Below are positions 14,216 through 17,023 of a DNA stretch of 52,609 bases, piece by piece. The notes beneath the pieces were generated by a model, which searched no databases, had not been told where the DNA came from, and saw only the letters and a program-made list of their open reading frames with translations. Each line of letters opens with the position of its first letter. The stretch's first letter is position 1. The DNA is from Deltaproteobacteria bacterium (GTDB lineage: Bacteria; Desulfobacterota; Binatia; DP-6): the NCBI GenBank assembly GCA_005879585.1, contig VBKG01000337.1, positions 1 to 52,609 on the forward strand, read 5' to 3'. The position numbers were made by a program, and so were the translations under genes.

Positions 14216-14908
14216 GTGTCGCTGACGGAGTGGAACCGCGAGCTCGAGCACGCCACCGCCGAAGACATCGTCGCCTGGACCTGGCGGCGGTTCGCCCCCG
14301 ACGTAATGCTCACCTGCTCGTTCCAGCACGACGGGGTGGTGCTCGCCCACATGCTGCACGCGATCGCGCCCGAGGCCCCGATCGTCTTCATCAACACCGG
14401 CTTCCACTTCCCCGAGACGCTCGCCTATCGCGACGAGATCGTGCGCCGCTTCGGTCTGCGGCTCGTCGAGCTCGAGCCGATCATGCCGCGGCCGGAGTTC
14501 GCCGAGCGCTACGGTCTCGACCTCTACGCCCGCAATCCCGACCTCTGCTGTCACATCAACAAGGTGGAGCCGCTCAAACGCTATCTCCCGAACATGCGTG
14601 CCTGGATCAACGGCCGGCGACGCGACCAGGCGTCGACGCGCACCGCGATCCCGATCGTCGAGGAGCACCAGGGCGGGCTCTACAAGGTGAATCCGCTCGC
14701 GTCGTGGACGTCGAAGGACACCTTCTACTACCTCGAGCGGCACGGCATTCCGACCCACCCGCTCTTCGAGCAGGGCTACACGAGCATCGGCTGCGCGCCG
14801 TGCACGCGGCCGCCGCTCGCGGGCGGCGACGAGCGGAGCGGCCGTTGGGCGGGACGGGAGAAGACCGAGTGCGGCCTGCACACCTTTCTCGAGCCGAAGG
14901 CCGAGTAA
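14216..14908 (+). CDS. cysH: APS/PAPS reductase (CC...CxxC Fe-S type, so probably APS reductase)
   Basis: NTGFHFPET, CCHINKVEPL, GYTSIGCAPC, ERSGRW, C-terminal ECGLH. Confidence 0.92.
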   Translation: MSLTEWNRELEHATAEDIVAWTWRRFAPDVMLTCSFQHDGVVLAHMLHAIAPEAPIVFINTGFHFPETLAYRDEIVRRFGLRLVELEPIMPRPEFAERYGLDLYARNPDLCCHINKVEPLKRYLPNMRAWINGRRRDQASTRTAIPIVEEHQGGLYKVNPLASWTSKDTFYYLERHGIPTHPLFEQGYTSIGCAPCTRPPLAGGDERSGRWAGREKTECGLHTFLEPKAE

Positions 14909-14912
14909 CGGG

Positions 14913-15704
14913 CTACGGCTCGGCGTCCTCGTCGCGCTCGGCCGTCGCCTCCGCGTAGCGCTCGAGCAAGGGCTCGCCGAGCCGCTGGACGAGCCAGCGG
15001 TGGACGAGCCCGACACAGCGCTGCCACGCCGGCCCGGCGAGCAGCCAGTGGCCCGCGCCGTCGAGCGCCTCGTGCTGCGCGCCGATCGTGCGCGCGAGAG
15101 CCGCGGCGGCCGGTGCCGGGAGGAACGGGTCGCGGTCGCCGGCCACGACGAGCGTCGGCACGCCGGCAACGGGCGACGGCGCCAGCCGCGGTCGGACGAC
15201 GTCCCGCACGACGCGGGCGCTGTCGGGAGCGAGGGCGGAGACCACGGCACTCCGGAGTGGCGGCGGCAGCTCCCCGCAGAGCGGCGCGGCGGCGGCGAGC
15301 GTCGGGGGCGGCACGGCGCGGCCGAGGAGGAGCGGCACGACGGTGGCCGGGCGCATGGCCAGCGCGCGCGCCGGCGCGCTGCCCGGGACGACGGGCGCGA
15401 GAAGCACGACGGCAGCCGCCGGGGCGCGGGCGGCGGCCGCGAGCGCGACGACGCCGCCCACGTCGTGACCGATGAGCACAGGCGGCGCGGACAGCGCGGC
15501 TGCATGCGCGGCCACCGCCGCGGCCCGCGTCGCGATGCCACCGTCGACCGCGCGAACGTCGAGGAGCTGGCTCTCCCAGCCCCGATGCGCCAGGTAGCTG
15601 GCGAAGCCGCGCCACACGAGCGGCGCCGACCAGAGGCCCGGGATGCAGAGCAGCGACGTCGTGTAGCGCGCGCTCTCGGCGCGGACGATGTCGGCGCTCA
15701 GCAT
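14913..15704 (-). CDS. Alpha/beta-fold hydrolase
   Basis: Elbow LIGHDVGG, acid in GDRDPF, His in GAGHWL. Confidence 0.8.
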   Translation of the reverse strand: MLSADIVRAESARYTTSLLCIPGLWSAPLVWRGFASYLAHRGWESQLLDVRAVDGGIATRAAAVAAHAAALSAPPVLIGHDVGGVVALAAAARAPAAAVVLLAPVVPGSAPARALAMRPATVVPLLLGRAVPPPTLAAAAPLCGELPPPLRSAVVSALAPDSARVVRDVVRPRLAPSPVAGVPTLVVAGDRDPFLPAPAAAALARTIGAQHEALDGAGHWLLAGPAWQRCVGLVHRWLVQRLGEPLLERYAEATAERDEDAEP

Positions 15705-15728
15705 GCGCGTCGCTCCATCAGTCCAACG

Positions 15729-15759
15729 AAAAAGGCCCTTCGTGACTCGAAGGGCCTTT
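15729..15759 (-). terminator. Intrinsic terminator of the Lys-rich micro-protein RNA
   Basis: Minus strand AAAGGCCCTTCG-AGTCA-CGAAGGGCCTTT: perfect 12-bp stem ending in a U5 tract. Confidence 0.85.
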
Positions 15760-15859
15760 CCGTGGGCCCGTCGACGGGGCCCATTCTCGCCTGAGACGAA
15801 TCTTTTGTCTTGGTGTTACGTGCCTAGCAACTGCGGATCGGAACCAACCAACGTCGTCA

Positions 15860-15952
15860 CTACTTCTTCTTGGACCCCTTCTTCTTCGAGGGGGCCTTTT
15901 TCTTCGCCTTGCTCTTCTTCTTCGCCTTCTTCGCCTTCTTCTTTGCCGCCAT
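15860..15952 (-). CDS. 30-aa lysine-rich micro-protein MAAKKKAKKAKKKSKAKKKAPSKKKGSKKK (histone H1 tail/protamine-like composition)
   Basis: Perfect SD AGGAGGT 4 nt before ATG; tandem stops TAG TGA; 17 of 18 Lys codons are AAG; own promoter and terminator. Too short for the ORF track. Confidence 0.85.
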   Translation of the reverse strand: MAAKKKAKKAKKKSKAKKKAPSKKKGSKKK

Positions 15953-16040
15953 AGTTACCTCCTGTTGGAATCGAGAATGTTCCCTTCCGTCCCTCTCTCA
16001 GGCGAGAACCCCACTCCACACCTCAACCACCACGGCACGG

Positions 16041-16070
16041 AGTATAGAGGTGCGTCCGCGCAAGAGTCAA
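16041..16070 (-). promoter_or_regulatory. sigma70 promoter for the micro-protein RNA, with upstream A-tract (UP-like)
   Basis: TTGACT-N18-TATACT; A9 tract at 16093-16101 in otherwise GC-rich DNA. Confidence 0.75.
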
Positions 16071-16247
16071 TAGACGACCGGCGTTTTGGAAATTTTTTTT
16101 TAAACCGGCGCGACCCGATCTGCCCTCGGCGATCGGCTCCCTAGAATGACGTTCCCCTTCATCCGACGCCGATGAGTAACAGATCGTTTTACTCCTCCGC
16201 CGTTGCCTCCGTGCACGCTTTCCGTTAGGCACTTTCGCGGAGTGCGC

Positions 16248-16553
16248 ATGGCGGGTGGACGGCTGCTGAGCATGGTGCTGCTGCTCGCCAGCGTGACGGT
16301 GACGGCGTCGGCGCTCGTCGGCGAGCACGGGATCCCGCACCTCATCGGACTCCGCGCCGAGCGCGAGGATCTCGGGCGAACCGCGTTCGCGTTGCTCGAA
16401 GAGAACGCGCGGCTCCGCGACGAGCTCCGCCGTCTCAAGAAGGACGACCTCTATCTCGAGCAGCTCGCGCGCCGCCAGCTCGGACTCGTGAAGCCGGGAG
16501 AGATCGTCTACCGGTTCCGTCGCTCGACGCGCGACGGACGGCCGAGGCGTTAG
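16248..16553 (+). CDS. ftsB: Septum formation initiator (FtsB/DivIC family)
   Basis: One N-terminal TM, coiled coil, LEQLARRQLGLVKPGEIVY motif. Confidence 0.85.
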   Translation: MAGGRLLSMVLLLASVTVTASALVGEHGIPHLIGLRAEREDLGRTAFALLEENARLRDELRRLKKDDLYLEQLARRQLGLVKPGEIVYRFRRSTRDGRPRR

Positions 16554-16555
16554 CC

Positions 16556-16942
16556 TCAGCCCTCCTCTTCGCCGGACGCGTACTCCTCGTACTCGTCGGC
16601 GTCCATCAGGTCCTCGAGCTCGGCTTCGTCCGTCAGCTCGATCTCGACGAGCCACCCCTCGTGGTACGGGTCCTCGTTGACGATCGCGGGATGATCGTCG
16701 AGCTCGTTGTTGGTGGCGACGATGGTGCCGCTGAGCGGCGCGAGCAGCTCGGAGACCGTGCGCACGGACTCGATCTCGCCGAACGGCTCGCCCTTCTCCA
16801 CCTCGTCGCCGACGTCGGGCAGCTCGACCGCGATCACCTCGCCGAGCTCGACCTGACCGTACTCCGAGATCCCGAGGTGTGCGCGATTGCCCTCAATGCG
16901 CACCCACAGGTGATCCTCGGTGAACTTCAGGGCTTCCGCCAT
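16556..16942 (-). CDS. gcvH: Glycine cleavage system H protein-like
   Basis: GISEYGQVELG, NEDPYHEGWL. The lipoyl motif reads IESVRTVSE, with Arg where the lipoylated Lys normally sits. Confidence 0.88.
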   Translation of the reverse strand: MAEALKFTEDHLWVRIEGNRAHLGISEYGQVELGEVIAVELPDVGDEVEKGEPFGEIESVRTVSELLAPLSGTIVATNNELDDHPAIVNEDPYHEGWLVEIELTDEAELEDLMDADEYEEYASGEEEG

Positions 16943-16995
16943 CGGTGGCTCCTGTTCGACGGGCGTGCGGGCTGGATTCCGGCCGGCTGCGGCCT

Positions 16996-17023
16996 CTTAT
17001 AGAAGCGGCTTTTGGCGTGTCAA
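16996..17023 (-). promoter_or_regulatory. sigma70 promoter of gcvH
   Basis: TTGACA-N16-TATAAG. Confidence 0.6.

Follow-up and report, generated by a model that had tools for sequence, protein, structure and literature searches.

A probable gene for a lysine-rich micro-protein in the Binatia, with a predicted helix joining the two untranslated regions of its messenger RNA

Introduction

A small transcription unit lies on the minus strand of contig VBKG01000337.1 of a Deltaproteobacteria bacterium of the class Binatia (assembly GCA_005879585.1), between ftsB and a gene for a protein with an alpha/beta-hydrolase fold. The whole stretch of DNA analysed, 52,609 nt long, is called the window here, and coordinates are those of the window. 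The unit is very probably a functional protein-coding gene. Its open reading frame (ORF) encodes a peptide of 30 amino acids of which 18 are lysine, and this micro-ORF is preserved among relatives in a manner that points to selection on the peptide. Meanwhile, the 5' and 3' untranslated regions (UTRs) of the predicted mRNA are complementary, and would form a helix, P1, whose arms differ in sequence between families of the class whilst keeping their placement. On balance we consider it probable that the unit is a highly expressed, self-contained gene for a disordered polycation, with an mRNA stabilised by P1.

A preliminary description of the window had pointed to an A-tract, a TTGACT-N18-TATACT promoter, an AGGAGGT Shine-Dalgarno (SD) sequence, the 30-residue frame with its 18 lysines, a double stop, a 3'UTR of about 100 nt and a terminator; all are present on the minus strand. 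The covarying helix which would close the mRNA was absent from that account.

Organisation of the unit

The elements are given below in the order of transcription.

16083-16104, minus strand: UP-element-like A/T tract TTTAAAAAAAAATTTCCAAAAC, read from the sequence, upstream of the -35 hexamer
16041-16070, minus strand: sigma-70-type promoter TTGACT-N18-TATACT, with -35 hexamer at 16070-16065 and -10 hexamer at 16046-16041, followed by a G+C-rich stretch
16009-16034, minus strand: G/U-rich 5' leader with GUGG-type repeats, from sequence and alignment
15996-16008, minus strand: P1 5' arm UUCUCGCCUGAGA, a 13-bp Watson-Crick match to 15796-15784, paired in minimum free energy (MFE) and centroid folds
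15957-15963, minus strand: SD sequence AGGAGGT, separated from the ATG by 4 nt; all 20 family loci share AGGAGG unchanged
15857-15952, minus strand: micro-ORF MAAKKKAKKAKKKSKAKKKAPSKKKGSKKK, 30 codons followed by TAG TGA (ATG at 15952, codons 15952-15863, stops 15862-15857)
15817-15828, minus strand: family-invariant 3'UTR box GCUAGGCACGUA, from the alignment, with GCTAGGCAC invariant in 20 loci
15784-15796, minus strand: P1 3' arm UCUCAGGCGAGAA, from alignment and folds; other families have a different sequence at the equal position
15764-15782, minus strand: hairpin H GGGCCCCGUCGACGGGCCC, 1 nt after P1, with two of its six pairs changed on both sides
15729-15759, minus strand: intrinsic terminator AAAGGCCCUUCG-AGUCA-CGAAGGGCCUUUUU, a stem-loop followed by U5, from sequence, alignment and folds

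The promoter hexamers match the consensus at 10 of 12 positions, and CTTGACT and TATA are invariant in the family alignment. When 15000-17000 was scanned on both strands with the promoter consensus, this was the only promoter-like site, against 0.1 expected from shuffled sequences. The transcription start, as deduced from the position of the -10 hexamer, would lie near 16034. The A/T tract, which we take to resemble the UP-element consensus of E. coli, contains a part, TCCAAAAC, that is invariant in the 20 family loci, and a TTCCAAAA/TTCTAAAA version of it is retained in other families. Its combination with TTGAC occurs a single time in the genome, as does the 3'UTR box, and the idea of a shared regulon was rejected for this reason.

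The families of the class that were sampled, 19 in number, are labelled f1, f2 and so on, f1 being the family of the genome under study. In f1, f2, f3, f5, f6 and f10 the composition of the G/U-rich leader is retained but its sequence is not. Hairpin H is found in f1, f4, f5, f6, f10 and f15, and is absent from f2 and f8. The terminator begins 101 nt past the micro-ORF stop. It was read by eye and predicted by both RNAalifold and RNAfold, a consensus terminator scan having failed to list it, and in the family alignment 96.8% of the cells of its 14 pairs are paired, with two pairs changed on both sides.

The 3'UTR box is family-specific rather than class-wide. Two roles were tried for it and rejected. 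It is not a fixed stop trap for out-of-frame reading and does not close an overlapping frame, as the frames of its two stop triplets vary ((0,2) ten times, (1,0) six times and (2,1) five times); nor is it the -24 element of a sigma-54 promoter, no TTGC being seen at the right spacing when the family alignment was inspected by eye. A glutamate-rich ORF of 67 codons in another frame (15816-16019, minus strand) is explained by the AAG repeats, which read as GAA in that frame, and relatives do not conserve the frame.

Conservation and distribution

A DNA search of 40 relatives recovered the whole unit, from promoter to terminator, at 68-93% identity over about 380 nt in 19 genomes of the same family. 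Counting two genomes with split hits, 21 of the 24 same-family genomes examined possess the unit; completeness is 80-89% in the other three, which gave no clear hit. All 20 family loci compared retain the SD, the ATG and an open lysine-rich frame of 21-30 codons with the core SKAKKKAPAKKK. The gene order is likewise fixed: class II ribonucleotide reductase, gcvH, the divergent ftsB, the unit, the alpha/beta-hydrolase-fold gene on the same strand as the unit and, usually, a convergent cysH. Around the 20 family loci, tblastn found the hydrolase gene in 20 and both ftsB and gcvH in 19. Identity to the copy in the window is 45-77% for the hydrolase-like protein and 42-81% for FtsB; the DNA of the unit is conserved equally or better. 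The preliminary description had proposed a stand-alone, strongly signalled micro-gene between ftsB and the hydrolase-like gene, and had expected relatives to share its SD and ORF. The unit proves to be conserved, with synteny held in 20 of 20 loci tested, and SD and ORF are present in each of the 20 family loci.

Scanning species genomes with an exact pattern yielded 65 loci; 17 of them contain a lysine-rich ORF, and the remaining 48 are chance matches or an unrelated repeat. All 17 are labelled Candidatus Binatia, Candidatus Binatus or, in older nomenclature, 'delta proteobacterium' or 'Thermodesulfobacteriota' metagenome-assembled genomes. One Candidatus Marinacidobacterium chromosome carries about 25 copies of a 63-65-nt stretch, evidently an unrelated dispersed repeat, that matches the 3'UTR search pattern by chance.

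Homologues of 13-106 amino acids, each preceded by an SD sequence, were verified in 11 of the 19 sampled families. Most start MA(A/V)KKKA, and their lengths are as follows.

f1: 19-30 amino acids
f2: 16 and 29-31 amino acids
f3: 13 amino acids
f4: 78 amino acids
f5: 27 amino acids
f6: 33 amino acids
f8: 63 amino acids, (KKAPA)n
f9: 36 amino acids
f10: 40 amino acids
f12: 101 amino acids, (KKKAT)n
f15: 96-106 amino acids

The longer homologues consist of (KKAPA)n or (KKKAT)n repeats, the latter in f12 and f15. What appears constant across the class, judged by these sequences, is composition, charge and N-terminus, and not length or sequence. Of 151 class genomes, 54 contain a strict SD-ATG-GCN-(AAR)3-GC pattern and one contains its reversed control; this count is a rough indicator rather than a bound, for the pattern misses known f1 members and is not specific, and families were counted only if verified by eye. 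Six of 27 parsed pattern loci are ordinary proteins of 58-429 amino acids that merely start MAKKKA. One f7 candidate, with a GTG start, no SD and a helix of 4 bp, was dropped. In one same-family genome a separate ORF of 59 codons, rich in Lys, Pro and Ala and built of (KKKAPA)n repeats, lies at another locus and has no clear SD.

Neither Pfam nor NCBIfam contains a family that matches the peptide at E <= 1, the three homologues of 96-106 amino acids match no Pfam family, and Rfam covariance models gave no match at E <= 1 on either strand of 15000-17000. None of 14 peptide variants looked up in a collection of 15 billion proteins was present. The ESM Atlas does contain the exact 30-residue sequence, so the micro-protein is unnamed rather than never predicted; the nearest clusters there are unnamed 'hypothetical proteins' of 22-43 amino acids (721, 105 and 67 members, scores 0.92-0.94), which are leads only. 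A profile of 24 peptides had no match at E <= 0.001 among 1.84 billion representatives, a result uninformative on range given that so small a low-complexity profile is powerless: over the 151 class genomes the same profile found 12 and missed the genome under study. In the literature on polylysine and lysine-rich micro-proteins and on lysine leader peptides, no account of such ribosomally encoded bacterial genes was found.

Composition of the peptide and selection upon it

The peptide comprises 18 Lys, 6 Ala, 3 Ser and one each of Met, Pro and Gly, with no Arg. It has a mass of 3298 Da, an isoelectric point of 11.2 and a charge of about +17.5, and lacks any hydrophobic segment and any anchoring aromatic or hydrophobic residue. 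Seventeen of its Lys codons are AAG and one is AAA, and the ORF is 81% purine. This composition stands out in its genome (5,277,337 bp in 625 contigs, 70.4% G+C, 99.2% complete), in which Lys accounts for 1.3% of residues and Arg for 14% by a rough count over long ORFs that is inflated by spurious frames. The genome thus strongly favours Arg codons, yet the peptide contains 18 Lys and no Arg. A six-frame scan of the genome for ATG-started ORFs of 10-70 amino acids with at least 35% Lys found two, one being the micro-ORF and the other a frame of 10 residues without an SD. The micro-ORF is more than a chance occurrence, since it is the sole lysine-rich frame preceded by an SD-like motif in a genome of 70.4% G+C.

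The variation among the 20 family sequences argues that selection acts on the peptide, and not only on lysine codons or on an A-A-G repeat in the RNA. This follows from four features. Entropy at codon positions 1, 2 and 3 is 0.25, 0.31 and 0.72. The codons of Ala2 are GCG in six sequences, GCT in five, GCC in five and GCA in four, Pro21 is written in four synonymous codons, and substitutions at Ala16, Ala20 and Pro21 are synonymous in nearly every sequence, three or four codons being in use at each of these positions and at Ala2. Arg takes the place of Lys through both one- and two-base changes, AAC or AAT being found at no Lys codon position. Finally, differences in ORF length are mostly of whole codons. 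The (AAG)n run was also considered as a site for the distal face of Hfq, whose motif is (ARN)n. This was rejected: Hfq was not found in the 99.2%-complete genome, AAC and AAT are absent from the Lys codons, and the Lys-to-Arg changes break the ARN pattern.

A helix between the 5' and 3' untranslated regions

In the family alignment a 5'UTR block, UUCUCGCCUGRGA (16008-15996), and the 3'UTR block UCUCAGGCGAGAA (15796-15784) are both invariant blocks and are reverse complements of each other. They pair as the 13-bp helix P1, around the SD and the ORF, both in the RNAalifold prediction and in the MFE and centroid folds of the single sequence. Within f1, eight of the 13 pairs never vary, three vary on one side in a wobble-compatible manner and two vary on both sides, with 97.7% of cells pairing. 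Taking P1, hairpin H and the terminator together, 96.4% of f1 cells pair; sliding the 3' partners by 1-3 columns lowers this to 38-63%.

It is the other families which make the case for covariation. Overall, a helix of 9-15 bp is found in f1-f6, f8-f10, f12 and f15, and the arm sequences are unrelated among f1/f5/f10 (which have one in common), f3, f4, f6, f8, f9, f12 and f15, whilst their placement is constant. Examples of the 5' and 3' arms are given below.

f6: GGCGAAGGG/CCCUUCGCC
f8: CUCCGCCUC/GAGGCGGAG
f9: CGGCUCGUC/GACGAGCCG
f12: CGACUGGUA/UACCAGUCG
f15: GUUUCGUCG/CGACGAAAC

These unrelated arms at equal placement are the decisive point in favour of P1. The helix was assessed as the longest contiguous Watson-Crick match between the 5'UTR (100 to 14 nt upstream of the ATG) and the 3'UTR (from the stop to 30 nt before the U-run), with 1000 shuffles. 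Nine of 11 family representatives have a helix of at least 9 bp, where the shuffle mean is about 6 (each p <= 0.038; Fisher combined p 1e-9); the rows are not independent, as f1, f5 and f10 share an arm sequence, the test was designed after the sequences had been inspected, and the representatives were not chosen blind. Six further loci comprised f4 with 13 bp (p 0.002), f15 with 9 bp (p 0.02), three f2 loci with 6-8 bp and the doubtful f7 candidate already mentioned. The f2 helix is interrupted: in windowed duplexes it has 18-23 pairs at -28 to -32.5 kcal/mol, compared with -18 to -21 for shuffles (p 0.003-0.023, four of four loci). RNAduplex applied to whole UTRs gave sprawling duplexes and uninformative z-scores, and was replaced by the longest-helix test and the windowed duplexes.

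In loci with a helix of at least 9 bp, the end of the 5' arm lies 30-85 nt upstream of the ATG, beyond the reach of a ribosome given the size of the ribosome footprint. The 3' arm stops 30-91 nt short of the U-run, immediately ahead of hairpin H, where this is present, and the terminator. The micro-ORF stop lies 17-78 nt from the 3' arm or nearest conserved RNA element in the 11 representatives. The 3'UTR of an f3 locus has a feature of its own, ACCCUCCUUAU, which resembles the anti-SD end of 16S rRNA and could pair either with the G-rich leader (GGGAGGGUUU) or with the SD, both being complementary to it in the same mRNA; this could be a family-specific translational switch.

Presence in RNA libraries

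Part of the window is present in 20 public sequencing runs, and two metatranscriptomic libraries from one study contain 23% of the words sampled from it. Within 14800-16700, their contigs of 234 nt (15781-16014) and 227 nt (15788-16014) match without a mismatch, and each takes in the whole or the greater part of the two P1 arms and all that lies between. Contigs from RNA libraries of two other studies match 15858-15952, the ORF, with 1-3 mismatches and have unlike flanks, as expected of relatives. RNA-library contigs give some cover of gcvH too and none of the hydrolase-like gene or ftsB, where lack of cover does not count as a finding. The contig ends at 16014 and at 15781 or 15788, from a single study, were considered as RNA ends and rejected as such, since contigs are not readable in this way; a processed RNA with the helix at its foot is an idea only. 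The unit is thus present in RNA libraries, which is not the same as a mapped transcript.

Neighbouring genes

Downstream of the terminator and on the same strand lies the hydrolase-like gene.

14913-15704, minus strand: alpha/beta-hydrolase-fold gene, 263 amino acids, starting 24 nt past the U-tract; downstream of the unit in 20 of 20 family loci, absent from four f2 genomes

In f1, f3, f6, f8 and f10 this gene starts 8-40 nt past the terminator. It is probably expressed by read-through, because its start follows so closely and often leaves no room for a promoter. The four f2 genomes possess the unit with a convergent cysH directly after it, and the hydrolase-like gene is a conserved neighbour rather than a necessary part of the unit. 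Its product has a generic alpha/beta-hydrolase fold with no lysine link, and a PDB sequence search with the protein gave no matches. In the copy from the window and eight homologues, the Asp and His of the catalytic triad are retained, along with a C-terminal HRW(I/L)V..LGE motif and an acidic C-terminal tail. The 'nucleophile elbow', by contrast, differs between families (GHD, GHG, AHD, GFD, GQD, AHN and THD, the residue being Asp, Gly or Asn), which suggests a pseudo-enzyme or an unusual mechanism.

On the other side, the divergent ftsB/DivIC gene occupies 16203-16553 on the plus strand (PF04977, E 2e-15), and the ATG at 16248 is a likelier start than the listed TTG at 16203. The consensus scan found no other promoter-like site in the 170-nt gap between the ftsB start and the micro-gene promoter.

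Proposed role of the unit

The explanation on which we settle, as somewhat better than an even prospect, begins with transcription. The UP-like element and near-consensus hexamers, a motif confined to this one locus of the genome, would direct very high transcription of a monocistronic RNA of about 310 nt, running from around 16034 to around 15727 on the minus strand and ending at the intrinsic terminator. P1 would close a near-pure-purine coding loop of about 200 nt, which is predicted to be unable to fold on itself and would leave the perfect SD free, and, standing beside hairpin H and the terminator, it would tie both ends of the mRNA together. By analogy with the hbs mRNA of B. subtilis, P1 and the strong SD may protect this tiny mRNA from attack by RNase Y, J or E; the genome contains RNases Y, J, E/G and III. 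Translation would yield, in abundance, a peptide of 30 residues that carries a charge of about +17.5 and lacks a hydrophobic core. Such a peptide is expected to be a disordered polycation acting through bulk charge on polyanions, as histone H1 tails do, by analogy on DNA in the first place and then on RNA or polyphosphate. A bulk-charge function is argued for by the lack of fold-building residues, the use of 18 Lys and no Arg, and the plasticity in length.

Several points weigh against this explanation. The peptide itself is predicted from nucleotide sequence, and its binding partner is proposed by analogy. Strand, ends and level cannot be read from the RNA-library contigs, and DNA carry-over is possible. 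P1 is mostly invariant within f1 and could equally be a sequence-specific site there, its covariation coming only from the comparison between families, and in folding the whole RNA outdoes its shuffled versions by only a modest margin (z = -1.94). Five matches to the HU/IHF family in the genome leave no gap that calls for a further nucleoid protein. The Pfam HC2 model (PF07382) is unmatched, the 30-residue form giving no hit and the 63-residue f8 homologue 15.6 bits (E 0.018) against a cut-off of 40. The tight class-wide linkage to the hydrolase-like gene hints at a functional tie outside the model. Finally, the 3'UTR box and the G/U-rich leader are left without a role and are unexplained by it.

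Two of the five HU/IHF matches lie in very long open frames (416 and 678 amino acids from stop to stop), which may be HU fusions or tails or just G+C-rich frames.

A far-reaching extension, which we hold to be improbable as a whole, is that polylysine micro-proteins, protamine-like and made on the ribosome, serve the Binatia as a major counter-ion of the nucleoid or of RNA that has gone unrecorded. The locus would then be a three-part module, consisting of a closed-loop mRNA with a three-helix foot (P1, hairpin and terminator) that the peptide may bind to set its own level, a leaky terminator, and the hydrolase-like protein, with its variable 'nucleophile' and acidic tail, as partner or chaperone of the polycation.

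Alternative explanations

The peptide could be a tiny polybasic ribosome-associated protein, its strong promoter reflecting co-expression with the translation apparatus. We regard this as unlikely. Size, charge and the rRNA-promoter-like signals, namely the UP-like tract and the G+C-rich stretch after the -10 hexamer, are in keeping with it, and bS22, bL37, bTHX and eL41 are proteins of about 24-33 amino acids that are very basic and often missed by gene callers. Polybasic ribosomal micro-proteins, however, are near-constant in length and carry mixed Arg and Lys fitted to an rRNA site. The Binatia peptide differs from them in lacking a match to any NCBIfam or Pfam model at E <= 1, in having Lys only and no residue for anchoring, and in its range of lengths, since expansion of repeats from 13 to 106 residues is a poor fit to a fixed rRNA pocket. 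Moreover, no other locus of the genome has the promoter motif in common with it.

An equally modest chance attaches to a dual-function or mainly regulatory RNA, in which other RNAs or proteins are the targets of P1, the GCUAGGCACGUA box and the G/U-rich leader, the peptide being of secondary importance. The UTRs are indeed conserved about as well as the ORF and contain invariant blocks of 9-13 nt, the 3'UTR box has no pairing partner inside the RNA, and a hairpin followed by a terminator is the end of many small regulatory RNAs. Set against these are the signature of selection at the protein level, the invariant SD and ATG, the restriction of the box to one family and to one site in the genome, the failure to find Hfq in the 99.2%-complete genome and the lack of an Rfam match at E <= 1.

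Less probable still is a leader peptide with an attenuator, in which a ribosome pausing on the 18 Lys codons would govern transcription past the terminator into the hydrolase-like gene. The order promoter, ORF, terminator, gene is the classical one, the ORF has a run of one codon type, and the gene follows on the same strand with scant or no promoter room in the five families named above. Such a role is unlikely because some genomes, the four of f2, have the unit without that gene. Furthermore, the non-Lys residues are conserved through synonymous change, ORFs reach 96-106 codons, the downstream gene has no known lysine link, and neither the MFE nor the centroid fold contains an antiterminator alternative. 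A ribosome within the ORF would touch neither arm of P1, with 17-78 nt between the stop and the 3' arm downstream of it, and at least 30 nt between the 5' arm and the ATG. The preliminary description had offered the sensor peptide of a regulatory RNA as a second possibility; this proposal is unlikely in view of the purifying selection on non-Lys residues, the distance of 17-78 nt between the ORF end and the nearest conserved RNA element in the 11 representatives, and the genomes in which the unit stands without the hydrolase-like gene.

Very improbable, finally, is an mRNA like those of type I toxins such as hok and aapA1, kept inert by 5'/3' fold-back until processed: long-range pairing does surround a small ORF and polycations can harm cells, but type I toxin mRNAs encode hydrophobic membrane-active peptides and are paired with a cis-antisense RNA, and here the peptide has no hydrophobic segment, no antisense promoter-like site is found in 15000-17000, P1 does not sequester the SD, with its 5' arm at least 30 nt from the ATG, and the locus is single-copy, fixed and housekeeping across the class.

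Implications

Should the peptide be as plentiful as its expression signals imply, every annotation of a widespread class of uncultured soil bacteria lacks a main basic component of the cell, and gene callers and profile searches are blind to micro-genes of this kind. The 30-mer and its natural length series of 13-106 residues offer a concrete, testable case for bacterial micro-proteins resembling H1 tails or protamines. Likewise, covariation-supported pairing of natural 5' and 3' UTRs in a bacterial mRNA outside the Firmicutes makes the role of end-to-end pairing in stability testable with compensatory mutants.

Comparison with known systems

The closest parallel to the mRNA is the hbs mRNA of B. 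subtilis, which encodes the HU-like protein HBsu. In that mRNA, a strong SD and a 14-bp interaction of the 5' UTR with the 3' UTR are described as limiting attack by RNase J1 and RNase Y and as coupling stability to initiation (PMC5737220). The Binatia unit likewise has a small and presumably very highly expressed mRNA, a perfect SD, a UTR-UTR helix, here of 13 bp, and a basic product that may bind nucleic acid, and homologues of RNases Y and J are encoded in the genome. The two differ in that there is no sequence relation, that the Binatia helix surrounds the whole ORF, adjoins the terminator and appears to covary across the class, and that HBsu forms a folded HU dimer whilst the Binatia product is predicted to be a disordered peptide of 30 residues. 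An effect of P1 on stability is thus suggested by analogy. In icaR of S. aureus, pairing of the 5' UTR with the 3' UTR is reported to block the SD (PMC3868564); P1, by contrast, does not.

For the peptide, chlamydial Hc2 provides one parallel, its size reportedly varying with the number of lysine-rich pentamers (PMC2848022). Hc2 and the Binatia peptides share a low-complexity, Lys/Ala-rich polycationic character and a variable number of repeats, a likeness of kind and not proof of descent, while Hc2, at 165-237 amino acids, is larger and its HC2 model does not match the Binatia peptides. The resemblance to H1 tails and Hc2 drawn in the preliminary description therefore stands for composition and for plasticity of length, and fails for the Pfam model.

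AlgP and PhaF of Pseudomonas provide another parallel. AlgP has been tied to the spacing of polyphosphate granules and to the nucleoid (PMC9239181; review PMC11894788), and PhaF is reported to have a disordered RNA-binding region (PMC12818456). Both have H1-like KPAA/AAKP repeats of Lys, Ala and Pro, to which the KKAPA repeats of f8 are similar. In those proteins, however, the repeats are tails on larger folded or coiled-coil proteins, whereas in the Binatia the polycation is the whole protein.

Several kinds are already known: Lys/Ala-rich H1-like bacterial proteins, tiny basic ribosomal proteins, small ORFs missed by annotation, and pairing between 5' and 3' UTRs. To these the present unit adds homologues of 13-106 residues in a series that spans the class, a covarying helix closing the mRNA, and the linkage to the hydrolase-like gene.

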